51,987 bases of DNA from sequence record PZ715803.1, one strand, 5' to 3'. Both the position numbers and the translations under genes were made by a program. This DNA is from a phage. Below the pieces are notes generated by a model that saw nothing but the letters and a program-made list of their open reading frames with translations, did not search any database and was not told the origin of the DNA. Shown piece by piece: positions 31,684 through 46,870 of the stretch. Every line of letters starts with the position of its first letter. Positions within the stretch are counted from its first letter, which is position 1.

Positions 31684-31869
31684 TTAAAAGAAAGCTACAT
31701 AGTTTGCAATGCCTTTTGCGTCGTCGTTTGGCATTGCTTTTACAGCCAGGTCATAACCCGCCTCTACCTTCTGCTTTGCTGTTTCTTCGTTGTAGCCCCA
31801 GATAACCAGGATTTTAACTACGTTTTCTTTGTTCAGGACTTTAAGGTCTTTGGTGATGCGACGTGCCAT
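31684..31869 (-). CDS. Hypothetical protein
   Basis: 61 aa; element promoter with hairpin and CATCGAAAC leader upstream. Confidence 0.6.
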   Translation of the reverse strand: MARRITKDLKVLNKENVVKILVIWGYNEETAKQKVEAGYDLAVKAMPNDDAKGIANYVAFF

Positions 31870-31926
31870 TTTTGTTTCCTCAATCTCGTTTCGATGAGGC
31901 TATTATGCCAGGCTTTGCGCCTGGCG

Positions 31927-31945
31927 TTTTAACAAAAAGTGCTAT
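31927..31945 (-). promoter_or_regulatory. 19-bp element copy, then 22 bp containing hairpin GCCAGGC..GCCTGGC, then CATAAT
   Basis: Exact consensus; stop codon of the upstream lipoprotein gene embedded in the element. Confidence 0.55.
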
Positions 31946-32202
31946 TTAATATCTGTTGTGACTTGCTGGTGCATTACGTTCTTTCCGCTGTTGTACGTGC
32001 TATCCGTTGCGCCTTTGCAATTGGTGTAATAGATCGCGCGACCGTTATCATAGAATCTGTATGCTGTGCATCCGTCAACAGTGAACAGGCGACCGACTTT
32101 GAAATCTGACTCCACGCCTACGACAACCGTTGATTCTGATGCCTTTTCGCATCCGGTCAGGAGTGTCATTGCCGCCAAAACGCCGATTAATGCCTTTTTC
32201 AT
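31942..32202 (-). CDS. Lipoprotein (second predicted lipoprotein; candidate receptor-masking / superinfection-exclusion protein)
   Basis: Signal peptide with lipobox LTGC; two additional Cys. Confidence 0.7.
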   Translation of the reverse strand: MKKALIGVLAAMTLLTGCEKASESTVVVGVESDFKVGRLFTVDGCTAYRFYDNGRAIYYTNCKGATDSTYNSGKNVMHQQVTTDIK

Positions 32203-33299: not shown

Positions 33300-33358
33300 C
33301 TCAGGCCACCTGATCGGGTACATTGCACACATCGAAACGAACCGCTCAGGAGATAGCA

Positions 33359-33631
33359 ATGAACATCAGCAAAACCACTTTCAATTTCGCCAAGCGTCAC
33401 GGTCTGGATCTGACTGTTGAAGATTTTGGCGATGTTCTGCAACTCTGCATTTGGGAAGCAGATAACGATTGCGAGTGGCTTTGCTCTTATCGCATCAACT
33501 ACGATTGCTTGACCTGGCACGGCAATATCTATCTGCCGCAAGAAGTGAAAGAAGAATTGCCAGCGACTATCAACAACGAGGTTTTCTTGCGTCAGGTGCT
33601 GAAATTTATCAGTGAGGAGATCAAGAAGTAA
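33359..33631 (+). CDS. Hypothetical protein
   Basis: ATG 33359 with GGAGA RBS (ORF-track start 33323 is upstream). Confidence 0.6.
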   Translation: MNISKTTFNFAKRHGLDLTVEDFGDVLQLCIWEADNDCEWLCSYRINYDCLTWHGNIYLPQEVKEELPATINNEVFLRQVLKFISEEIKK

Positions 33632-34603: not shown

Positions 34604-34661
34604 CTCAATCCTCGTATTCCTGTACATTACACGCATCGACAACGAATGCGAGGATTTGAAA

Positions 34662-34814
34662 ATGGTTACTCTGATTACCTGGGAACACGAAAACAGCCAG
34701 CCGGAAGCGCGCGAATTTGAAACCGTAGCCGCTTGTTACAACCTGGCGAAAAATGGCGGATTCTACAAGGCGCAAATCGTTAACGAGTTTGGAGTTGTTG
34801 ACTATGAGTTCTAA
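34662..34814 (+). CDS. Small hypothetical protein (50 aa, below ORF-track cutoff)
   Basis: ATG with GAGGAT RBS right after the element promoter; overlaps next start. Confidence 0.45.
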   Translation: MVTLITWEHENSQPEAREFETVAACYNLAKNGGFYKAQIVNEFGVVDYEF

Positions 34815-37749: not shown

Positions 37750-37967
37750 TAAACAGTGAAAACCGTTACAAAGTAACGCATTCTACCACAAAGACTTTCA
37801 AGCCTGGCGATATAGTCAGGCCCATCAAAAAAACGGCGGTAGGTTGGCTGATTGGTTTTTCATATCATAAGGCGCTTTACTTTACGTTTAAGGATGGGAT
37901 TACAGGAGAATGCTACAGCGACCGCCAGCCTGATCGACTTCTGGTTGCAATAGAGCGGATCAAATAG
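37746..37967 (+). CDS. Hypothetical protein
   Basis: 73 aa; overlapping start. Confidence 0.6.
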   Translation: MINSENRYKVTHSTTKTFKPGDIVRPIKKTAVGWLIGFSYHKALYFTFKDGITGECYSDRQPDRLLVAIERIK

Positions 37968-37982
37968 CACTTTTTGACAAAA
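37964..37982 (+). promoter_or_regulatory. Element variant with TTGACA (ATAGCACTTTTTGACAAAA), then 22 bp, then TAAAAT
   Basis: Single T-to-C change creates a consensus -35-like hexamer. Confidence 0.5.
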
Positions 37983-38035
37983 CGGGGTAGTATTGGGCCG
38001 TTAAAATTTACGGCCCACAAAGGAGAAGCTAACGA

Positions 38036-39616
38036 ATGTTTTCATTAGAAACGAACAAATTAACTCCACAGCAAATAATCGCTATGGCTGAAAGCCAGAA
38101 CCTTTCACCAGTTCGCGTATCAATTCAGGCTAACGGCTATCGCCAGTCGTCCAGCTTTTGGGGCGACGTGAAGGATGTAAATAGCGGTCACGATCGCTAC
38201 CCCGTTATTTCTCTTGGTAATGATATTGATGTTGTCGGCAAGCTATCACGCAGCATTGCGCGATCCGTTCAATTCCCTGAATCATCGGCTTACATGCACT
38301 TTATCGGCTGCATTTCTGCCGCTATGCTTGGACGCTTTACGGTTGACTATCACGGAACAGATCAGCCGACTGCGCTTTACGTCGTTACAAGCCAGCCGCC
38401 GTCAACTGGTAAATCTGCGATCAACAGCATGGCTATTGCTCCGATGATTGCGGAAGTTGAGAAGATCAACGAGCAACGCCGCAAGGAAAGAAAGAAAATA
38501 CAGGCAAAGTTGGCAGGTCTTGCAAAGGAGATGAAAAGCGAAAGGTCCGGCGCTGATATGGAATCTCTATACCAGGAAAAAGAGGATCTGGAGGAGAAGC
38601 TGGAAAAGATGTGTGATATAACTTTCCCTGTTTCAGATACAACTCCAGAAGGCTTGGCGAAAATCAACAACAAGCAAGGTAACTTTGCCGTAATATCTGA
38701 CGAAGCAACAAGTATTAACAGTCTGTTAGGCTTGACCTATGCAAATAGCGAAAGGAAGACTAACAGTGAGCTAGTGCTTAAGGCGTGGGATAATGGTCAC
38801 GTATCAATTGCCCGTGCTAATGCCGACAATAATATGAGTTTTCGCGCGCTTGGATGTATGAGCGTTATAGCACAGGATGAAACGATAAGCGGAATCATGG
38901 ACGCTGGATCGCGCGGTATCGGTGTGAGTGAGCGCTTTTTGTTGGTCCGCGAAGAATCATTCTTAGGCCGTCGCTCATTCATTGATGAAAATGGTGATTC
39001 TACCTATGAGGCGGTGGATTCTGAATTGAAAGCCCAATATTATCAATTGGTGCATAACATCATGAGCGAATCAAATATATCGCTGAAAATAAGCCGCTCA
39101 GCTATGCGAGTGCTCAACATTGCTCGCCAGGATATGGAACCGCATCTTGCAGACGGCGGAAAGTATTCTCATACAATGTTACGCGGTGCGCTGGGTAAAA
39201 TGGATAAACAGGTGATCAGGCTTGCTTCCGTCCTGCATGTTATCCGCAACTGGTTTAATCCTGCTGGATACCCGCAGAAGTCGAAAGAGATCGACGTGGA
39301 AACAATGCAAGAGGCGCTGATCATGTTTCAGGAATTGAGCAAAACATACATTAGCGCCGCCAATGCTTCTGGTTATGCTGGTGATGATGCTGAAATGGGC
39401 AAATTGATTGAATTGATCACTAGACACGGCAAGGCTAATAAAGGGATTCTGAATATTCGCGCCCTGTACGAATCAGCGAGAAAGGTAAAACCTTTCGTTG
39501 GTCAAGCTGGCGTAATGAAGAGGATAGAAGGGCACTTGCTGCCAATGCTGGAAGAAAGAAATTATGTTTGTGTTATTAATGGTGTTATTTTTGTCAATCC
39601 AATACTGCTGGGATGA
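38036..39616 (+). CDS. P-loop NTPase with Walker A/B (putative replication or recombination ATPase)
   Basis: 526 aa; Walker A QPPSTGKS, Walker B-like AVISDEA. Confidence 0.8.
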   Translation: MFSLETNKLTPQQIIAMAESQNLSPVRVSIQANGYRQSSSFWGDVKDVNSGHDRYPVISLGNDIDVVGKLSRSIARSVQFPESSAYMHFIGCISAAMLGRFTVDYHGTDQPTALYVVTSQPPSTGKSAINSMAIAPMIAEVEKINEQRRKERKKIQAKLAGLAKEMKSERSGADMESLYQEKEDLEEKLEKMCDITFPVSDTTPEGLAKINNKQGNFAVISDEATSINSLLGLTYANSERKTNSELVLKAWDNGHVSIARANADNNMSFRALGCMSVIAQDETISGIMDAGSRGIGVSERFLLVREESFLGRRSFIDENGDSTYEAVDSELKAQYYQLVHNIMSESNISLKISRSAMRVLNIARQDMEPHLADGGKYSHTMLRGALGKMDKQVIRLASVLHVIRNWFNPAGYPQKSKEIDVETMQEALIMFQELSKTYISAANASGYAGDDAEMGKLIELITRHGKANKGILNIRALYESARKVKPFVGQAGVMKRIEGHLLPMLEERNYVCVINGVIFVNPILLG

Positions 39617-40008
39617 TTATGTTTTTGCTTGATCTGTATAAATGGTGTGAGTCATACGACTGGTTTAACAGGCAGCACATAGCCAAATTTATCTATCAGC
39701 ATAGAGAATGCGAGCGGCTCGCACGGGCCGCCGGACTTACGCCGCGAATGTTCGCCAGCCTTGCATCTAAGGAATTTTGCGCAAGAATGATGACGGCTGG
39801 TTATATAGATGGGGTCTGCGGAAAATACTGGTCCAAAGGATCGTCAAAGCGGCCTTTCGGATTCGAATTGTATAGCCTGGATGGTATGCGCAACGACTGG
39901 ATCAGGGATATGGCGAGAATAGGGGAGATGGGCGATGATGAATTGTTCCAGGCAAAAGCTAATAGACAAGATCTTGAAGCACTGCGCCGTAAATTCAATA
40001 TCACATGA
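39613..40008 (+). CDS. Hypothetical protein
   Basis: 131 aa; ATGA overlap with upstream gene. Confidence 0.65.
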   Translation: MIMFLLDLYKWCESYDWFNRQHIAKFIYQHRECERLARAAGLTPRMFASLASKEFCARMMTAGYIDGVCGKYWSKGSSKRPFGFELYSLDGMRNDWIRDMARIGEMGDDELFQAKANRQDLEALRRKFNIT

Positions 40009-40125
40009 GGATTTTATTCATGCTTTACTTACGCTACTTTATTCAGATATGCGCGCTTTTAGCACCACTGAACATGTTTTATGCAATGATGATGGTGTAT
40101 TACTGGTTACGGTAAAGCGTATGGA

Positions 40126-40144
40126 ATAGCATTTTTTGTTAAAA
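40126..40144 (+). promoter_or_regulatory. Element variant (ATAGCATTTTTTGTTAAAA), then 22 bp hairpin, then TATATT; left arm of a 45-bp inverted repeat with the copy at 43369-43387
   Basis: About 30 bp identical to the reverse complement of 43343-43387. Confidence 0.55.
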
Positions 40145-40205
40145 CGCCCGGCCTAGTGTCGGGTATATTTGTTTCATCGAAACGAAACAACCAAAAGGTA
40201 AAATT

Positions 40206-40430
40206 ATGTCCAGCAAGTTTTTAGTAGTTCGCGTATATAATCATGACAACGGATCTTCTGCTGAAATCCCGACAATTTACGACAGGGATTTTGGATGGAG
40301 TGAGCAATCGGCGGTTGAAAATGAGCGCAAGATTGCAGAAATGTACGGCGACACTTGCAGCATTGAAGTAAGGCAGTACGACGAATCGAACAAGCCAACA
40401 AACGAAACTCATATGTGGCCCGACGCATAA
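40206..40430 (+). CDS. Hypothetical protein
   Basis: 74 aa; single-gene unit between element promoter and terminator. Confidence 0.6.
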   Translation: MSSKFLVVRVYNHDNGSSAEIPTIYDRDFGWSEQSAVENERKIAEMYGDTCSIEVRQYDESNKPTNETHMWPDA

Positions 40431-40437
40431 AAATAAA

Positions 40438-40454
40438 GGAGGCATTAAGCCTCC
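40438..40454. terminator. Bidirectional terminator (GGAGGC-ATTAA-GCCTCC plus T-run) at the convergent junction
   Basis: Hairpin overlapping the spanin stop codon; T5CT4 on plus strand. Confidence 0.6.
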
Positions 40455-40840
40455 TTTTTCTTTTCTCTCCAGTAAAGACAAATCAGCACAATTAACACAA
40501 CCACGCATATGATTACTGGATCGTACCATCTGCCGTTATTACCCTGCACGACCTGAATTTTGTCTGCCTTGATGGTATTGGCCTGAATGGTTGATGTTGT
40601 GAAATCCTTCTTGCTGGACGTGTCCACCTTGTCAACCGCAGATTCCTTTATTGTGGTTTTCTGTTTTGTGCTGGCGTCCTGCTTTGCTGTAATGCCAACT
40701 GTCTGCTTCACGTTCTCCGCGCCAGCCTGTGCTGTGATTTCCGGCTTACTGCCGATTAATCCGGTCAGTGGCGTAACGCTTGAACATCCAGACAAGATCA
40801 CCGCCATTGCGATTGGTGCGATTAAAAATTTCTTCATCAT
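40445..40840 (-). CDS. Unimolecular spanin (N-terminal lipoprotein signal plus C-terminal transmembrane helix)
   Basis: Lipobox ILSGCSS, C-terminal hydrophobic helix [16 protein letters not shown]; ATG overlaps endolysin stop. Confidence 0.65.
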
Positions 40841-41328
40841 TTCAGATCCATTGTGCAATATTTGTATTCGACCTTGCGCCTGTTAAGTAAGCCTTTAGAC
40901 TTCTCGCGCTTTCCTGTTTTGGGGTTATGGTAATACGTCCAACGATAAAGCTGATCGCAAGCCTCGTTTAATTTCCCCTGGTTGATGAGTTTCAGCATTG
41001 TTGAATTTCTGAAAGCTCCCACACCTGCATTGTAAGTGAATGAGTACATTGCTGCACGCATACTATCAGGAATGTCAACCTTAACTTGCTTGTCAACTTC
41101 CTTTTTAGCAACCTGGATATGCTTAGCCAACAAAGCATCACACTCTTTTTTAGTGTACGTTTTCCCCAGGATAACATCTGGTCCGGTGATTCCTGCGCAA
41201 ACCGTCCATACTCCAGCAATATCTTTGTATGGCTTGTATCTTACCCCTTCGATCTCTTCAAGAAGTGGAGAAGTCAAGGCAACCGCAACGCCAAAGGCCG
41301 CCGCCGCCACCCTGTTCTTGATGCTCAT
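40837..41328 (-). CDS. Endolysin, phage lysozyme (GH24-like) with N-terminal signal-anchor-release (SAR) domain
   Basis: Catalytic E-x8-D-x5-T arrangement ([19 protein letters not shown]); N-terminal weakly hydrophobic Ala/Gly-rich helix. Confidence 0.8.
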
Positions 41329-41543
41329 TACTTGCCCCTGATTTCAATAGCTTTTTGAATATCACCTTTTTCGATCGCCTCGTGGAATTTTTTACTATCA
41401 CGCCAGCGAAGGTAAGCACCCCACGCACCGAATGCAGCCATTAAAACAAAGCTGGCAATAGCAATGGTTAACTGACCTGTAGCGGCGCTTGCGATAGATG
41501 AACCGCCAGATCCGGCTGTAGCTGCGTTAATAAAATCTTTCAT
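41328..41543 (-). CDS. Holin (pinholin-like, two transmembrane segments)
   Basis: 71 aa, Gly/Ala-rich hydrophobic segments and charged C-terminus; stop overlaps endolysin start. Confidence 0.6.
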
Positions 41544-41689
41544 TTTTAATGCTCCATATTAATTAAAGTCAATATATTAACCGCATAATAAACGCACATG
41601 ATAAAAATTTAAACAAAAAAAAGAGGCGACAAACGCCGCCCCTTTGCAAGTTTTTGATTTAATTTGTCATTGATTTAAATAAAAATTCA

Positions 41690-42805
41690 TCAATTCATCA
41701 TTTCTGGATAGTGAACAAATCGCCCAACTTCTCCATGCTCTTTGTCGTAAATGATAACCGCTGCACGGCGTCGAGATCTCCAGCCACCGCGCGCGGCGTA
41801 TGCGTCTTTTGCCGCCAGGGTGCTATGTACCTCCACGATCCCAAGCGACGTTTCCGTCACGGTCTGGTGATGCCAGTGCCCTACGTGCGCATACATCGTT
41901 TTTGAGTTTCCGAAGTCCTCCCGCCAATCTGACGCGCACATCATTAGCAAAGTCTCAGGTTTGCGCACTGTGTGCCCGTGATGGTACGCAAGGAAAGTTT
42001 TTCCGTATTGCGTGTGGTGAACAACGCGAGGAGAAACATCAACGTAAACGCGCGGCTCGTTCTCATATGCTGCCGCCATTGCTGCGCGTAGCCAAATCAT
42101 TCCTGATTGGTCGTGATTGCCCTCAACGATCTGGACCTCAACATGTTTATGCTTTAACAGCATTTTATTAATTGCGCGGCGCATTGCACGTATTGCAACG
42201 TAAACCAATTTTGCATATCGGCTATCTTGATCAAGTACGTGACCGCTTGCAGGGGTCACAGCCTCCAGGCCATCGCTATGAAGCATGTCGCCACCAATCA
42301 GGATAACAGCCTTTTCACTGTCAGGTGCGCACATCAAAGCATAGTCGATAAAGTTATTCATAACGCGCTCCGCCGTCGCAGTATCCCAATTTTCGCCGCA
42401 CTCGTGCTTATGGGCCATAGCGCCTAAGTGCATGTCAAAGATCGGATACAATGAAAGCGTTTCATTATAGTCACGCTCCTGCAATGGAACTGGATCTAAT
42501 CGCGGCACTTCCTCGCTAAACGCCTCCATTGCTGCGCGCATCAATGCTTCTAGTTGCTCTTTATCCTTGCTGGTTTTGGTCCACTTGAGGATTATGTTTC
42601 CTTCTTTGTCAGTCATTACTGACTCACCATGAACACCAAAACCAGGCGCTCCGATGGTTGATAACTGTCCTTGCTTTGCAAGACGCGCCGCGCGACGCTC
42701 GACGCTTCTCACATTCATTCCGTACTCTTGAGCGATCTGTTTATATGTCTTACCTGCCGCTCGTTCGATCTTGAATTGCTCATCTGTAATTTTTACATTT
42801 TTCAT
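41690..42805 (-). CDS. Calcineurin-like metallophosphoesterase with N-terminal helix-turn-helix domain
   Basis: DxH, GDxxHxD, GNHD motifs; N-terminal HTH-like segment TYKQIAQEYGMNVRSVERRAARL; ATG 42805. Confidence 0.75.
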   Translation of the reverse strand: MKNVKITDEQFKIERAAGKTYKQIAQEYGMNVRSVERRAARLAKQGQLSTIGAPGFGVHGESVMTDKEGNIILKWTKTSKDKEQLEALMRAAMEAFSEEVPRLDPVPLQERDYNETLSLYPIFDMHLGAMAHKHECGENWDTATAERVMNNFIDYALMCAPDSEKAVILIGGDMLHSDGLEAVTPASGHVLDQDSRYAKLVYVAIRAMRRAINKMLLKHKHVEVQIVEGNHDQSGMIWLRAAMAAAYENEPRVYVDVSPRVVHHTQYGKTFLAYHHGHTVRKPETLLMMCASDWREDFGNSKTMYAHVGHWHHQTVTETSLGIVEVHSTLAAKDAYAARGGWRSRRRAAVIIYDKEHGEVGRFVHYPEMMN

Positions 42806-42899
42806 TCTGCTACCTATCTCATTACTATATGGTACATAACTGTAACAGCGATGATAACGGGTAACGGTAGAACAAACAAGCGCCACATGATAACTATCC

Positions 42900-43142
42900 T
42901 CATTTATAATATTTGCGAGGCTCTCGGATTTTAGTCATTGCCTCTTTGAAATCAATTTTTGTTGGAACTGCTGGAACTCTTACCATTTTTCGCGGCCTTT
43001 CCTTGAGGAAAGTCATCTTGTCGCCGCTAATTATGCTCACATCTGCAATATCAAAGTATTGCGCGATCTTCTTTATATCGTCGGCAATACCGCATTCTTT
43101 AGCGTGATTCCATACCGCATCTCTTCCTTGCTCAACCTTCAT
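42900..43142 (-). CDS. Hypothetical protein
   Basis: ATG 43142 overlapping the upstream small ORF. Confidence 0.5.
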   Translation of the reverse strand: MKVEQGRDAVWNHAKECGIADDIKKIAQYFDIADVSIISGDKMTFLKERPRKMVRVPAVPTKIDFKEAMTKIREPRKYYK

Positions 43143-43311
43143 GCTTATAATATGCCTCCGCTTGTTCAATTGGCGCGTGACCGTATGCAACTTTCAGTAA
43201 AAACATTGCGATCTCCCAATCAAACTGGAATCCTTCCTTTGAACCTCCCTCTACTGAACCTTTTGCTGCCTCTTGAGCAAGATTAAAAGCGCGTTTATCG
43301 AATACCACCAT
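43132..43311 (-). CDS. Small hypothetical protein (59 aa, below ORF-track cutoff)
   Basis: ATG with GAGGAA RBS directly downstream of the element promoter at 43369. Confidence 0.45.
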   Translation of the reverse strand: MVVFDKRAFNLAQEAAKGSVEGGSKEGFQFDWEIAMFLLKVAYGHAPIEQAEAYYKHEG

Positions 43312-43368
43312 TTTTATTTCCTCATGTTTGCTTCGTTGAAATAATTATGCCCGACACTAGGCCGGGCG

Positions 43369-43387
43369 TTTTAACAAAAAGTGCTAT
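43369..43387 (-). promoter_or_regulatory. 19-bp element copy, then hairpin, then CATAAT; right arm of the 45-bp inverted repeat; candidate promoter of the lysis-containing operon
   Basis: Exact consensus; stop codon of 43387..43644 abuts the element. Confidence 0.55.
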
Positions 43388-43644
43388 TAGTGGATCATTC
43401 CGTGCTGAAAATTCCACGAATCGACAAACTCTTGCATGTCATTTCTTATTTGTTCGTGCCATTTTTCAAGCGGGAGTTTTCTTGTCTCCTCAAAGCTCAT
43501 ATCTAATGCGCTTGAAAATTCCCACGGATCGCAATCAATCATCTTTTTCACGTTAGGGTTTTTATCAAGTGCATCGCACACCATAGCGCGAAATAACAAC
43601 CATTCGCCAGTTTCATTTAAATAAACGCTTCTCTCTTTTTTCAT
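43387..43644 (-). CDS. Hypothetical protein
   Basis: 85 aa. Confidence 0.6.
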   Translation of the reverse strand: MKKERSVYLNETGEWLLFRAMVCDALDKNPNVKKMIDCDPWEFSSALDMSFEETRKLPLEKWHEQIRNDMQEFVDSWNFQHGMIH

Positions 43645-43648
43645 CGTG

Positions 43649-44374
43649 TTAGCTCCGTTTGCGCGCGCGGCGTTCGGTTACAGAAGGGCAAATATCGCTG
43701 ATCTTAACGTATCGCGTTTTCTGCTCCTCGCCTTCTTTAAGTTTTCGCATGACAAAAATCACGCTCCCCTTGTTGTTGCCCTGTACAGGCTCGCCAGTCA
43801 ATCCAGACACAAAGGCGATTCTTCCGGTGCGGGAGTATTCTACTCCACCCTCTTCGTAAACCTCACCAGTGATCCAGATGATTTCAGCCGCGTTTTTCTG
43901 CGCCTCATAAAACCATGCTGTAGAGTTGTCGGCTGGCAACAAAACATCAATTTGGTTGTTGTGCTCCATTTGCTCAATTGCTTTCTTGATAAATGGAGTT
44001 GGGTTGCTGTACGGCGGGTTAAGCCATACGTGCTTGTTGCTACCCCACCAACGCTTTAAGCAGTTTGTTTCCTTGCTATAGAACTTCTCGCAAACTGCGT
44101 TTTCCTGGCTTGCTGCCGCGTCGAGATCGTATTCACCAAATTCTGATTCCATCCACTCCACAATCTCTTGAGGCGTGCTCCACATATCGCGCACAACGTC
44201 CGGCGTGGTGCTTCCAGCGTATCGGTTTCCGCTTACCTTATAATATTGATTTGGCTTTACTGCCTGGTAATGGCCTCCAGTTGCAAGAGCATTCCCTATA
44301 AATGTTTCTCTCTCCAACTGCTCAAAGCTAACGAATGCGTCATTGGTGTCTTTATCTAAAATATCTTTAGCCAT
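43649..44374 (-). CDS. dam: DNA N6-adenine methyltransferase (Dam-like)
   Basis: NPPY catalytic motif (HVWLNPPYSN), 241 aa. Confidence 0.85.
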   Translation of the reverse strand: MAKDILDKDTNDAFVSFEQLERETFIGNALATGGHYQAVKPNQYYKVSGNRYAGSTTPDVVRDMWSTPQEIVEWMESEFGEYDLDAAASQENAVCEKFYSKETNCLKRWWGSNKHVWLNPPYSNPTPFIKKAIEQMEHNNQIDVLLPADNSTAWFYEAQKNAAEIIWITGEVYEEGGVEYSRTGRIAFVSGLTGEPVQGNNKGSVIFVMRKLKEGEEQKTRYVKISDICPSVTERRARKRS

Positions 44375-44438
44375 TTCATTTCTCCGCTATTAAAAGCTAT
44401 CTCGTGTTATTGAATTATGGCGCAATCCATCGCGCCAG

Positions 44439-44457
44439 TTTTAACAAAAAGTGCTAT
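44439..44457 (-). promoter_or_regulatory. 19-bp element copy, then 22 bp, then CATAAT; promoter module upstream of dam
   Basis: Exact consensus immediately after the VRR-NUC stop. Confidence 0.55.
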
Positions 44458-44873
44458 TTAAGCATGTATTCAATAGCCAACTTAAACTGATTAAATCCGT
44501 AGGCGACCGCAGCGAATCCTCCTAAGCTGCGAACTCGACGCAAAAAAGCCTTTTGTTCATCGCTGACTGGTGATGCTTTACCCTTGCCTGATTTATTCAC
44601 TCGTTTGATCTCAATCGCTGCAAATGGGTATTTCCCGTTTAAACCAATCAGGATGATGAAATCGCTTACTCCCTTAACCAAGCCGGACTGCTGATCAATC
44701 ATCGCCGTTGCTTTAGACTTCTCATTCTCGTTTACCGTATGCCACGCCAGCAAATAAGGATGAGCATAAGTCAACCACTGAAAACTATCTATCTGGTGAT
44801 TAACTTCCCTTCTCGTGTCGGTTGGATCTCTTTCGTAAAACTCAAGATAATCGCCTTTATCAGTTATAGCCAT
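44454..44873 (-). CDS. VRR-NUC domain nuclease (PD-(D/E)XK)
   Basis: 139 aa; D...E-x-K segment (SDFIILIG...AIEIKR). Confidence 0.7.
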   Translation of the reverse strand: MAITDKGDYLEFYERDPTDTRREVNHQIDSFQWLTYAHPYLLAWHTVNENEKSKATAMIDQQSGLVKGVSDFIILIGLNGKYPFAAIEIKRVNKSGKGKASPVSDEQKAFLRRVRSLGGFAAVAYGFNQFKLAIEYMLK

Positions 44874-46870
44874 TAAACAAACTCCCGTTTTGCAATGTTA
44901 TCCTCACCTTTGCCGTTCTTGCGATGCGTTACGCGTACAGGCGGCATGATGTGATGAGCGTATGACATTATTTTACGCGCATTTCTATAGCTCGCCACCA
45001 TACCAGCAATCTTGCGATCCGGTATGTGCTGCAATGCTATTTTTCTCCATATCGTACGGCAAATGTTGCTTTCTGACTCAGGGAAAAATCTTTCGTATGC
45101 CTTGAACGTGTCGCCGTTTGCCTCAAGCTCATAGCAAAAAACAATTCCTTTCTGGTTTTTCGTCATATCAACGCGGAAAGATTTAACGTTGCACCAATCG
45201 TTTTTGGTGTAGTGCTTGCCGCTTAACTTCTCGTTAGGATCGACAAGAGAAATATCGCAACAACGGCATACTCTCGCCACTACGTCGTTTTTTGTTCCGC
45301 AACCGCGCTTGATTATCTTTTTCGTTCTCGGATCTACCTGGTCCTCGCAAATTCTGTAAGTCCAAAAATGCTCGCATCTCTTCCCGTTATCGTCTACGTG
45401 CATACATCGGCGAGCGTAAAAGCTGTTTAGCGTTCCACATATCGGGCAAGTCTTAGGCTCTTTCCCGTTTGTAAACCTCTTTTGGAATTGCGCTTGCTCA
45501 AGGATTGGATCGAAATACAAATCCCCTAACTCATCCATAGTACCAGCAAAATCCAATACAAGATGGTCTTTTTTCTTGAATCCCTGCTCAATGTGCCATT
45601 GCTTAAGCAGTCGCATACCGCGCCCCAAAAGCTGGATAAGCAATGTTAGAGATCCTATCTTTCTCAGTATTACAGAAGTATCCCAAAACGGAACGTTAAC
45701 GCCAGTGGTAAGCGCCTGTACCTGGAAGATGTATTTTACTTTTCCCTCGTATGCCTCCCTCAGCCACTCTTTACGCTGATTGTCTCCAGTCTTGCCAGTT
45801 ATGATCCTGTATTCAACGCCTGGCGGCAGTGCGGCGGCGGCCTCCTTGCAGTGTCTTTCCCCTGCGCATGTAACTAAAACTCCGTTCCTGTCTTTGCATA
45901 TCTCATGGACTTTAGCCATGATTTTCTGTGTCATTGTTGCGTCTTGATGGATCTTTTCTTCCATCTTGCGCAATGTTTTAGCGTCAAAGTCTGAAACGCC
46001 ATCCTCGCTACTGGCTTCGAACTCTGAAAGGTCATACCCCAGGTCGCCTACGTCGCCGAAATTTGTTGGCACTACAGAACCGAATTTGATTAAGTAGTTT
46101 GTGTCTATGTTAGTCACCTGCTCACGCCAGAATCCCTTTTTGTTCTTATCTTCAACCAGTATTGGAACCACGCCGCGAAATTCAGATCCAGTCATACCGA
46201 ATATTCGCAATTCGTGCCCGTATGCCTCGCGACACCTGCGCATCATTTCCATGATTATTACCGTGTACTGTGTGCGTCCTGTTCCGAACATTGGATCGCC
46301 ATTGGAATCAAATTGCTGTTCTTCTCCAATCAGTACAGGCAAATCCTTCTTAGTGGTCATCTGCTGGTAAGATTCATTATTTTCTATCGCGTCGGCGAGA
46401 TCCTCCCAATCCACCTGGTGACATTCATCAATACCGATAACGTGCGGAACATAATCACCTAACGACTTAAACAATCCGTTTACCACAGTGCCCTCAGAAC
46501 CGACTACGATCGGAAAGTATGCGCTTTTTGTTTTCAGTCCGGCGCAATAGATTGAGTTTGGCACGCCAAGATTGCTGATCTCTTCTGAATCCTGATCAAC
46601 AATTTCAGCCTGACGAGCAAGCACCATCATTTTCAATCCCATTTTGCGGCATTGCGCCGCAACCATCGCAAACATCAATGTTTTGCCAGCCGACACAGAA
46701 GCCTTAACAAAGAAAGGATGCTCATAGTTTTTCATGCGCTTTGCGATCTCGGCATACGCAACGCACTGATAAGGATAAGGCACTATATTGCCAACAGTGA
46801 ATCGCTCTTGGATGCTTTTTATTACTGCCTCGCCTAACGCTGATATTTGTTTTTCGATATTTGGAATCAT
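44873..46870 (-). CDS. SF2 DExH-box helicase with C-terminal Cys-rich zinc-ribbon region
   Basis: Walker A SAGKT, DECH box, multiple CxxC pairs in the C-terminal 200 aa. Confidence 0.85.
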   Translation of the reverse strand: MIPNIEKQISALGEAVIKSIQERFTVGNIVPYPYQCVAYAEIAKRMKNYEHPFFVKASVSAGKTLMFAMVAAQCRKMGLKMMVLARQAEIVDQDSEEISNLGVPNSIYCAGLKTKSAYFPIVVGSEGTVVNGLFKSLGDYVPHVIGIDECHQVDWEDLADAIENNESYQQMTTKKDLPVLIGEEQQFDSNGDPMFGTGRTQYTVIIMEMMRRCREAYGHELRIFGMTGSEFRGVVPILVEDKNKKGFWREQVTNIDTNYLIKFGSVVPTNFGDVGDLGYDLSEFEASSEDGVSDFDAKTLRKMEEKIHQDATMTQKIMAKVHEICKDRNGVLVTCAGERHCKEAAAALPPGVEYRIITGKTGDNQRKEWLREAYEGKVKYIFQVQALTTGVNVPFWDTSVILRKIGSLTLLIQLLGRGMRLLKQWHIEQGFKKKDHLVLDFAGTMDELGDLYFDPILEQAQFQKRFTNGKEPKTCPICGTLNSFYARRCMHVDDNGKRCEHFWTYRICEDQVDPRTKKIIKRGCGTKNDVVARVCRCCDISLVDPNEKLSGKHYTKNDWCNVKSFRVDMTKNQKGIVFCYELEANGDTFKAYERFFPESESNICRTIWRKIALQHIPDRKIAGMVASYRNARKIMSYAHHIMPPVRVTHRKNGKGEDNIAKREFV

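Follow-up and report, generated by a model that had tools for sequence, protein, structure and literature searches.

Convergent promoter-like cassettes with matching hairpin spacers at the two ends of the lysis region of a Warwickvirus coliphage

Phage TLS and other T1-like phages carry 21-nt intergenic direct repeats (German, Kropinski, Misra et al. 2024, PMC11447400) with the consensus aaATAGCACnnnTTGnTAAAA, which in TLS follow the direction of transcription and precede a start codon by about 76 nt. The TLS paper gives the 21-mers by themselves and does not decide between a stoperator, an enhancer and an UP element as their function; it was the sole match in a literature motif search for the repeat. 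In T4-like phages, promoter-early stem-loop (PeSL) cassettes (Arbiol et al. 2010, PMC2839356; Comeau et al. 2014, PMC4122927) combine comparable elements in intergenic positions, and the locus described here is set against both systems.

The window analysed, a stretch of 51,987 nt from a Warwickvirus (Drexlerviridae, T1-like) coliphage, contains about 19 copies of the published Drexlerviridae repeat, and two of them form the arms of an inverted repeat around the lysis region. At up to three mismatches the 21-mer occurs 16 times in the window, against 0 expected. Relative to AATAGCACTTTTTGTTAAAAC, the left arm has one mismatch and the right arm none, and both arms conform to the TLS placement, each repeat lying on the strand of its downstream gene and starting 81 nt (left) or 77 nt (right) before the ATG. 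Of the 19 window copies, 14 have the ATG 73–84 nt past the start of the repeat; the upstream ORF has its stop codon inside the repeat.

An inverted-repeat search of the 52-kb window aligns 40125–40186 with the reverse complement of 43327–43388 at 55 of 62 positions, giving two 62-nt arms that are 89% complementary and 3140 nt apart. This pair ranks best among all inverted repeats of the window, the runners-up reaching 77–80%. The 45-bp repeat reported in the initial annotation is present, with 42 of 45 positions matched and mismatches at 40132, 40164 and 40168; its longest mismatch-free run is a perfect core of 31 nt (40133–40163, the reverse complement of 43350–43380), beyond which identity decays on both sides. 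The arm alignment thus carries identity through the spacer and is not limited to a 19-bp core. The arms had been described as pointing outwards, which is reversed here: the left module (+) reads rightwards and the right module (−) leftwards, both into the segment, and the arms are therefore convergent. The same pair is found in the independent genomes tonijn, PeterMerian, tiwna and Poky, so that an assembly artefact does not account for it.

The left arm is a complete module of repeat, hairpin spacer, −10 and leader start (40125..40186, +). Its 21-mer, AATAGCATTTTTTGTTAAAAC (40125..40145, +), includes the TAG at 40127–40129 that ends the upstream ORF 39935..40129, and is followed by the spacer hairpin GCCCGGC-CTAGT-GTCGGGT (40146..40164, +), with seven pairs including one G.U, and by the −10 hexamer TATATT (40164..40169, +) with a predicted start at A40176. 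This module serves a 74-aa gene of phrog_27210 in PHROGs (40206..40430, +), the single gene of its unit. A predicted bidirectional terminator hairpin (40435..40457) marks the meeting point of the two convergent units, and the Sip record carries terminator annotations at the equivalent place. On the other strand, Pfam and PHROGs identify the lysis cassette (40445..41543, −), composed of spanin (40445..40840), endolysin (40837..41328) and holin (41328..41543).

The right arm is likewise a complete module (43327..43388, −), with the 21-mer at 43368–43388, the hairpin at 43349–43367, the −10 hexamer CATAAT at 43344–43349 and a predicted start at the A at 43337; its 21-mer is overlapped by the TAA of the upstream gene 43387..43644. 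The first genes downstream are two small overlapping ones (43132..43311 and 42900..43142; together 42900..43311, −), followed by a gene encoding an HTH and metallophosphoesterase protein ('DNA repair exonuclease', phrog_704; 41690..42805, −). An alternative GTG start of this gene lies at 42886, and a sequence search of its product against solved structures gave no match. After the phosphoesterase gene stands an intrinsic-terminator-like hairpin of 11 pairs plus T8 (41620..41645, −), which is strong by folding (−17.9 kcal/mol, z −4.4), is annotated as a terminator in Sip and coincides in position with T66 of TLS. Between it and holin lies a predicted sigma70-like promoter, TTTAAA-17-TATTAT (41585..41613, −). 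The right arm had been proposed to drive an operon reaching as far as spanin, and this operon is interrupted by the 41645–41620 (−) hairpin and then by the promoter-like site at 41613–41585 (−). Since both elements stand between the genes for the phosphoesterase and holin, the right arm probably does not drive the lysis genes.

The description of these elements as promoter modules is reasonable. Comparison of 138 distinct modules from 37 sources reveals a −10-like hexamer exactly 18 nt after the 21-mer in 123, with information peaks at A(−11), T(−7), G(−14) and C(−1)/A(+1). In the arms, both TATATT and CATAAT occupy this 18-nt offset as sigma70-type −10 hexamers. A −35 hexamer at 16–18 bp from the −10 is absent from both arms, where the −35 position reads AAAACN; the TTGTTA of the repeat is separated from the −10 by 22 bp, leaving the modules without a canonical −35, and a consensus sigma70 scan calls neither arm a promoter. 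Three other readings of the element were rejected. A sigma54 site (TAGCAC-N3-TTGC against TGGCAC-N5-TTGC) would be 2 bp short in its spacing and have AG for GG, and by inspection the conserved downstream sigma70 −10 also opposes it. The UP element suggested in the TLS paper would need the T/A tracts to lie about 8 bp further upstream, within −59 to −38, provided that the −10 assignment is correct. An extended −10 inside the repeat (TGnTAAAAC) fails because the position that would need T(−7) varies.

The 18-nt spacer of the module family usually holds a GC-rich hairpin. Both arm hairpins pass a terminator scan, each as a stem-loop of seven pairs, five to six of them GC, followed by a T-rich tract (ATATTTGTTT and ATAATTATTT), and these tails are the most terminator-like among all copies. 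The right arm is the orthologue of TLS repeat DR12, directly after which the TLS authors place predicted terminator T62 (PMC11447400). The 61-nt left-arm segment folds at −16.6 kcal/mol with other helices included, and the 61-nt right-arm segment has an MFE of −14.3 kcal/mol and a centroid of −13.0 kcal/mol with the hairpin alone. Over 17 distinct orthologous arms, pairing is kept in 95.8% of cells, with compensatory C-G<->U-A and G-C<->A-U changes and an A-U<->G.U change tolerated on the sense strand only. Across 125 module contexts the folds are at −11.6 kcal/mol (sense), −10.3 (antisense) and −5.4 (shuffles), a comparison whose shuffle statistics overstate the support because related module sequences are not independent. 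An IMG/VR search for the hairpin pattern returned 17 loci. In most other modules the U-tract after the hairpin is weak, and in the 125 contexts the hairpin lies in the spacer, lies around the −10, or is absent (about 16%); the hairpins may therefore terminate only part of the transcripts, or may chiefly stabilise 3′ ends. Since no transcript-end mapping for any Drexlerviridae phage was found in the searchable literature, promoter and terminator activity are both read here from sequence only.

The spacer also records the history of the pair. Among all pairs of 16 modules in the window, the arm spacers are identical at 18 of 18 positions and the remaining 119 comparisons reach at most 11/18 (mode 5/18), so the earlier statement that this spacer is common to these two copies alone holds. 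Arm-to-arm identity is 6–8/18 in Tlsvirus and Tunavirus, 13–14 in Hanrivervirus and 14–18 in Warwickvirus, with individual Warwickvirus genomes at 14, 15, 16, 17 or 18. The left spacer reads (A/T)CCCGATCTYGTATCGGG in four genera and the right spacer GCCCGGCCTTGTGTCGGG in Hanrivervirus, while the derived loop CTAGT is common to both arms in Warwickvirus. Against its orthologue in Hanrivervirus egaa, the left spacer of the window has mismatches at 7 of 18 positions; the two spacers of one lineage are thus closer to each other than orthologues are between lineages. Of the 24 differences from tinuso over 645 nt, three are in the 18-nt spacer, each bringing the left arm to the state of the right. 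The derived states are confined to this short tract, and the flanks stay arm-specific in every genome (left GCAT / TATATT TGTTTCATCG; right GCAC / CATAAT TATTTCA). These comparative data across lineages, drawn from about 20 genomes, support gene conversion, that is, copying between the arms, as the origin of the spacer identity, which was one of two origins suggested initially.

The other suggested origin, a recent duplication, draws on the 18/18 identity of an otherwise variable spacer. In all six genera or lineages examined (Warwick-, Hanriver-, Changchun- and Tlsvirus, Klebsiella T1-likes, Tunavirus), a module nevertheless stands at each of the two sites; a recent duplication is therefore set aside, and with lineage-specific flanks kept by each arm in every genome and identity confined to about 31 nt, that one arm is a recent copy of the other at a new site is scarcely credible. 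Selection in place of transfer deserves more weight, though we regard it as unlikely: both entrances to the zone may need the same hairpin, perhaps to bind a single factor or to act as a matched pair of terminators, and may have reached it by independent substitutions. The CCCG...CGGG frame is common to both hairpins even in Tunavirus, where the loops differ, both tails are unusually T-rich and conserved across genera, and neighbouring spacer states are just one to three substitutions apart. Identity is dispensable, however, in viable relatives at 6–16/18; the right-arm hairpins of Tlsvirus and Changchunvirus are unrelated; the newly shared loop base (CTTGT to CTAGT) is unpaired and under no evident constraint; and the changes are clustered and all directed towards the partner arm. 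Parallel selection could still account for part of the similarity of the arms. Two further readings concern what the arms do. The hairpin might act in DNA, as part of the promoter mechanics and not as a terminator, a cruciform or changed spacer geometry allowing RNA polymerase to use the displaced TTG together with the −10. The TTGnTA element is indeed too far from the −10, at 22 bp, for normal sigma70 contacts, and some modules have the −10 in the hairpin loop. This is improbable all the same, given that G.U/G.T wobbles, present in 6 of 17 arms, would turn into C.A mismatches on the opposite strand, that sense folds are more stable than antisense ones, that the place of the hairpin relative to the −10 is not fixed, and that an extruded 19-nt hairpin would leave a 3-bp spacer without restoring normal geometry.

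The arms, being inverted repeats at the ends of the segment, had also been thought capable of mediating its inversion, and as recombination sites they could flip the lysis region, either with a site-specific recombinase or by homologous recombination at high frequency, and so switch regulation or generate variation. The perfect 31-nt core is long enough for phage recombinases, and the map suggests that a flipped product should be viable, because no gene would be separated from its own −10 and leader. Against this, gene order is identical in every relative inspected, comprising the same six genera or lineages, and 125 records match at least 80% of 39900–43700 in co-linear order. In a search of 50,697 phage records with a synthetic inverted junction, built for recombination within the 31-nt core, none of the 279 matching records spans the junction and the best covers 57%; these records are consensus assemblies, from which a rare inverted subpopulation could escape. 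Pfam and PHROGs searches of all segment proteins yield lysozyme, holin, spanin, the exonuclease-like phosphoesterase and small proteins only, and no recombinase, and no serine or tyrosine recombinase gene was found in or beside the segment. Inversion thus finds no support, and a switch of this kind is very improbable.

The explanation that we favour, and hold as a whole to be probable, treats the arms as the last two members, one per strand, of about 19 compact intergenic cassettes. The order of parts in each cassette is fixed: the upstream stop codon inside the 21-nt repeat (about −51 to −31), the 18-nt spacer, a conserved G at −14, a sigma70-type −10 and a predicted start at the conserved CA, from which a leader of about 25 nt leads to a ribosome-binding site and the ATG. 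The spacer would usually fold as a GC-rich hairpin in the sense-strand RNA and end or attenuate transcripts arriving from upstream, the −10 and T-rich discriminator taking the role of the U-tract, after which the cassette would restart transcription for the next gene. Positioned at the two entrances of the convergent lysis-gene zone, the arms therefore probably insulate it from the replication-gene operons on either side. That their spacers are identical would be a matter of history, not of function: the two hairpins may already have been alike in the common ancestor (CCCGRY...RYCGGG), and in the Warwickvirus lineage gene conversion over a tract no longer than about 31 nt would have made them identical, the conserved promoter elements on its flanks having primed the exchange. 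In this explanation the segment is no invertible switch.

The modules would in addition double as crossover points for mosaic exchange among co-infecting relatives. Specifically, mosaic joints inside the right module are seen as a diverged block at 43119–43360 in six genomes, a block starting at 43363 in JLBYU07 and a breakpoint at 43336–43357 in JLBYU16, which makes three independent mosaic boundaries within the module in a small sample, as expected of PeSL-type exchange sites. More tentatively, the cassettes may constitute a family-wide promoter class without a −35, with a nested terminator and read by a factor, in which they act as patches of homology for gene exchange and homogenisation among Drexlerviridae and the arms as matched insulators of the lysis zone. 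The conserved phosphoesterase of the segment, with its sigma70-region-4-like HTH, is one candidate reader of the repeat. Such a class, if real, would answer the question that the TLS authors left open.

Relative to the TLS description (PMC11447400), the fixed 18-nt link to the −10, the hairpin spacers and the pair with a homogenised spacer are additions. The arm pair offers a small, clean case of dispersed regulatory cassettes that evolve in concert over short tracts within a virulent phage, and the cassettes also appear as joints of mosaic exchange. The anatomy of the 21-nt repeat is fixed by its rigid −10 coupling, the upstream stop codon inside it and the usually compensatorily kept hairpin after it, and this provides a testable model of transcription stop and restart at each gene boundary. 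It bears on how T1-like phages are annotated and engineered; these phages commonly contaminate fermentations and are candidates for therapy.

No new kind of system is revealed, and likeness to known ones is partial. With the Hin, Gin, Cin and Fim switches the locus shares inverted repeats around a segment of a few kb, but here no recombinase gene was found, no relative shows a second orientation, and the arms are two ordinary copies from a promoter family dispersed over the genome. Activator-dependent phage promoters without a −35 include Mu Pm with Mor, the Mu late promoters with C, T4 middle promoters with MotA, and class II activator sites; the modules resemble them in having a conserved element that runs over the −35 position and further upstream (about −51 to −31 in the modules) and a good −10. 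We know of no activator in T1-like phages, and the modules serve replication-type genes that may have to be expressed by unmodified host polymerase; this likeness is positional only. The closest analogue appears to be the PeSL promoter/terminator cassette of T4-like phages, as an analogue and not as a class that would include the modules: likened by architecture, with no evident sequence relationship, both are small repeated intergenic composites of a sigma70-type promoter and a terminator-like stem-loop between small genes, and PeSLs are likewise homologous-exchange sites that shuffle neighbouring genes (PMC2839356, PMC4122927). PeSLs have a canonical −35/−10 with the stem-loop beside it, whereas the modules nest the stem-loop between an upstream element and the −10 and have no canonical −35. 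The promoter and terminator activities of PeSLs were measured (PMC2839356, PMC4122927), whereas those of the modules are deduced; and PeSL recombination produces deletions and mini-circles between direct copies, in contrast to the short-tract conversion proposed here between inverted ones.

Over 39000-45000, the window shares 98-99% identity with Escherichia phages PeterMerian, tonijn and other members of Warwickvirus (Drexlerviridae, Tempevirinae; T1-like virulent siphoviruses). Here the plus strand carries the helicase gene, ydbL and a 74-aa gene, and converging on them the minus strand carries the genes for spanin, endolysin, holin and an HTH-phosphoesterase ('DNA repair exonuclease'), two small genes, a further small gene and dam. 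The N-terminal HTH of the conserved HTH-phosphoesterase (41690-42805, minus strand) weakly resembles sigma-70 region 4 (E 0.0018, short of the Pfam cut-off), and two Klebsiella phage records list the protein as a sigma70_r4_2 protein; a sequence search found no solved relative. About 20 GenBank records labelled 'Campylobacter phage' (e.g. MG065669, A123), an unexpected host for a T1-like enterobacterial phage, share ~78% identity with this coliphage region.

The two arms, 40125-40186 (+) and 43327-43388 (-), are complementary at 55 of 62 positions and constitute the best inverted repeat that a repeat search finds in the window. When the arms are aligned, the 45 nt described in the initial annotation as nearly identical to the reverse complement agree at 42 positions, including a perfect core of 31 nt (40133-40163), and the pair recurs in independently sequenced genomes. 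The 21-mer AATAGCACTTTTTGTTAAAAC occurs 16 times in the window at up to three mismatches (0 expected by chance; 19 copies under looser matching), and the arms are two of these copies. The claim that the arms share a spacer unlike that of other copies also holds, with 18/18 identity between them against a maximum of 11/18 (mode 5) in the other 119 pairs among 16 well-formed modules. The likeness of the arms therefore exceeds both chance and the background of the repeat family. The next most similar spacer (11/18) belongs to the module at 31926, where 31866-31946 (-) is 78% identical to 43308-43388 (-) over 81 nt, leader and start codon included; this module may be a paralogue within a module sub-family.

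The 21-mer has already been described as a direct repeat in TLS, T1, Rtp and Rogue1 (consensus aaATAGCACnnnTTGnTAAAA), present in TLS as 18 intergenic copies ~76 nt upstream of start codons, whose function was left explicitly open, with a stoperator, enhancer site or UP element suggested (PMC11447400). By membership, the arms are part of this Drexlerviridae repeat family. Pooling the window with 36 related loci gave 138 distinct modules, and in 123 of them the best -10-like hexamer is placed exactly 18 nt past the repeat, with information peaks at A(-11) and T(-7) (1.7 bits each), at a G two bases ahead of the hexamer (-14; 1.3 bits) and at a CA that follows the hexamer by seven bases. As its TTGnTA lies 22 bp from the -10, the repeat covers roughly -51 to -31. 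Read from sequence, the module is a putative sigma70-type promoter signature with the repeat in place of the -35; a literature search found no transcript-end mapping for Drexlerviridae, so we infer promoter function. An ATG follows 73-84 nt from the repeat start in 14 of the 19 window copies. In most copies, the upstream ORF's stop codon falls within the first five bases of the repeat (TAG at positions 3-5, or an overlapping TAA; e.g. 40127-40129, 43387-43389 and 44454-44456), and the repeat therefore doubles as the end of the upstream gene. The module upstream of the helicase gene (37963-38035, +) has a perfect TTGACA inside the repeat and its -10 TAAAAT in the loop of a GGGCCGT/ACGGCCC hairpin; the orthologous modules of Hanrivervirus, Changchunvirus and Klebsiella phages retain a hairpin around the -10, built on other stem sequences. 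Elsewhere, just upstream of a weak module at 2741, the A-rich stretch 2541-2630 carries short overlapping direct repeats (families D5 and D6).

The arms were initially taken to point outwards, and in fact they face inward: the left module lies on the plus strand upstream of 40206..40430, the right on the minus strand upstream of 43311..43132, and the two convergent units meet at a bidirectional terminator hairpin predicted by terminator scan and folding (40435-40457). An operon running from the right arm through to holin, endolysin and spanin had also been proposed. The phosphoesterase/holin gap contains a terminator-like hairpin of 11 pairs and T8 (41645-41620, -; -17.9 kcal/mol, z -4.4), annotated as a terminator at the equivalent place in the Sip record and as T66 in TLS, followed 3' by a sigma70-like TTTAAA-17-TATTAT site from a sequence scan (both within 41585-41645, -). 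Because these elements intervene before holin, the right arm probably serves only the first three genes (43311 to 41690) and extension to the lysis genes is doubtful; the two elements suggest that the lysis cassette forms its own transcription unit, and it is probably either separate or reliant on read-through. Tunavirus has a degenerate 21-nt repeat module in the equivalent gap.

Most modules carry a GC-rich hairpin adjoining the -10. Of 125 contexts, 38 have it in the spacer, 67 have it around or overlapping the -10, and 20 have a weak hairpin or none. The contexts fold at a mean of -11.6 kcal/mol, compared with -5.4 for shuffled sequences, and folding of the sense strand is 1.4 kcal/mol more favourable than that of the antisense strand, both figures being inflated by sequence relatedness. 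In the hairpins of the two arms, 95.8% of cells are paired over 17 distinct orthologous sequences (support likewise inflated), with double changes C-G<->U-A and G-C<->A-U and an A-U<->G.U alternation that pairs on the transcribed strand only. Both arm hairpins pass the terminator scan, with the -10 and T-rich discriminator as tail, and in TLS the annotated terminator T62 directly follows direct repeat DR12, the orthologue of the right arm. On these grounds, we read the spacer hairpin as a probable RNA element for transcripts arriving from upstream, where it is predicted to act as a terminator, attenuator or 3' stabiliser and would sit in the one stretch of this very short intergenic cassette that is sequence-neutral. 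In the modules 33301-33360 (+) and 34605-34665 (+), the spacer pairs with the downstream gene's ribosome-binding region (-10.0 and -15.2 kcal/mol); since only read-through transcripts would contain the spacer, translation there might vary with the promoter from which the RNA started.

Recent duplication and gene conversion had both been offered for the shared spacer. The former is excluded, because modules occupy both positions in Warwick-, Hanriver-, Changchun- and Tlsvirus, Klebsiella T1-likes and Tunavirus. Four genera have (A/T)CCCGATCTYGTATCGGG as the left spacer; the right spacer is GCCCGGCCTTGTGTCGGG in Hanrivervirus, TACCCGGCGAAAGTCGGG in Tunavirus and a different hairpin in Changchun- and Tlsvirus. 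Arm-to-arm spacer identity is 6-8/18 in the distant genera among these and 13-14/18 in Hanrivervirus, and within Warwickvirus it is graded: 14/18 in tinuso, orkinos and swan01, 15/18 in EcoS-95, JLBYU16 and one IMG/VR contig, 16/18 in two IMG/VR contigs, 17/18 in Sip and JLBYU07, and 18/18 in the window, tonijn, PeterMerian, tiwna and Poky. The derived loop CTAGT is common to the two arms of the window type, and arm-specific flanks are kept (repeat GCAT left, GCAC right; TATATT TGTTTCATCG versus CATAAT TATTTCAACG). Relative to tinuso there are 24 differences in 645 nt, three of them inside the 18-nt spacer, and all three turn the left arm into the right-arm state. This evidence supports conversion, most simply explained as templated exchange of short tracts between the arms. 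The ancestral left hairpin CCCGATCT...ATCGGG (related loci L003, L005, L007 and L008) has a GATC (Dam) site in its stem, and phages with it encode a Dam methylase; the site has been lost from the Warwickvirus left hairpin (CCCGAC or CCCGGC; window 40146-40163). BEK7 (L004, 2489-2894) is without the left module, and a homing-endonuclease gene ends 19 nt ahead of the small gene; other relatives have HNH insertions nearby.

The suggestion that the arms could mediate inversion finds no support. Every inspected relative is co-linear, and in 125 records a single co-linear match covers at least 80% of 39900-43700; none of the 279 records that match a synthetic inverted junction spans it (consensus assemblies; best coverage 57%), and Pfam and PHROGs searches found no recombinase in the bracketed segment. 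Inversion should be tolerated in principle, because every gene would keep its own -10, and the absence of the inverted form from these records points to inter-arm crossover being either infrequent or counter-selected. In related loci L002, L022, L027-L031 and L036, compared over 43119-43389, highly diverged allele blocks of the small genes on either side have boundaries inside the right module: a block at 43119-43360 (~62 differences; six genomes) ends within the spacer, another starts at 43363 in JLBYU07, and the breakpoint in JLBYU16 falls at 43336-43357. From these joints, the modules look like sites of crossover in mosaic exchange between phages.

Collectively, the repeat is real, its initial description is partly wrong, and the inverted pair adds one more instance to kinds already known. 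The wider repeat-family anatomy is more useful than the pair itself, offering a testable answer to the published question of repeat function. Promoters without a -35 that carry activator sites are known from Mu (Mor/C) and T4 (MotA), whose sites the 21-nt repeat may be likened to in position. Mechanistically, the PeSL cassettes of T4-like phages are the closest system described: repeated intergenic units of a sigma70-type promoter and terminator stem-loop with measured promoter and terminator activities, which mediate modular shuffling (PMC2839356, PMC4122927). Both are repeated intergenic promoter and stem-loop cassettes, the activities here being predicted from sequence; unlike in PeSLs, the stem-loop is nested inside a promoter with no canonical -35, and the exchange observed is conversion between inverted copies.
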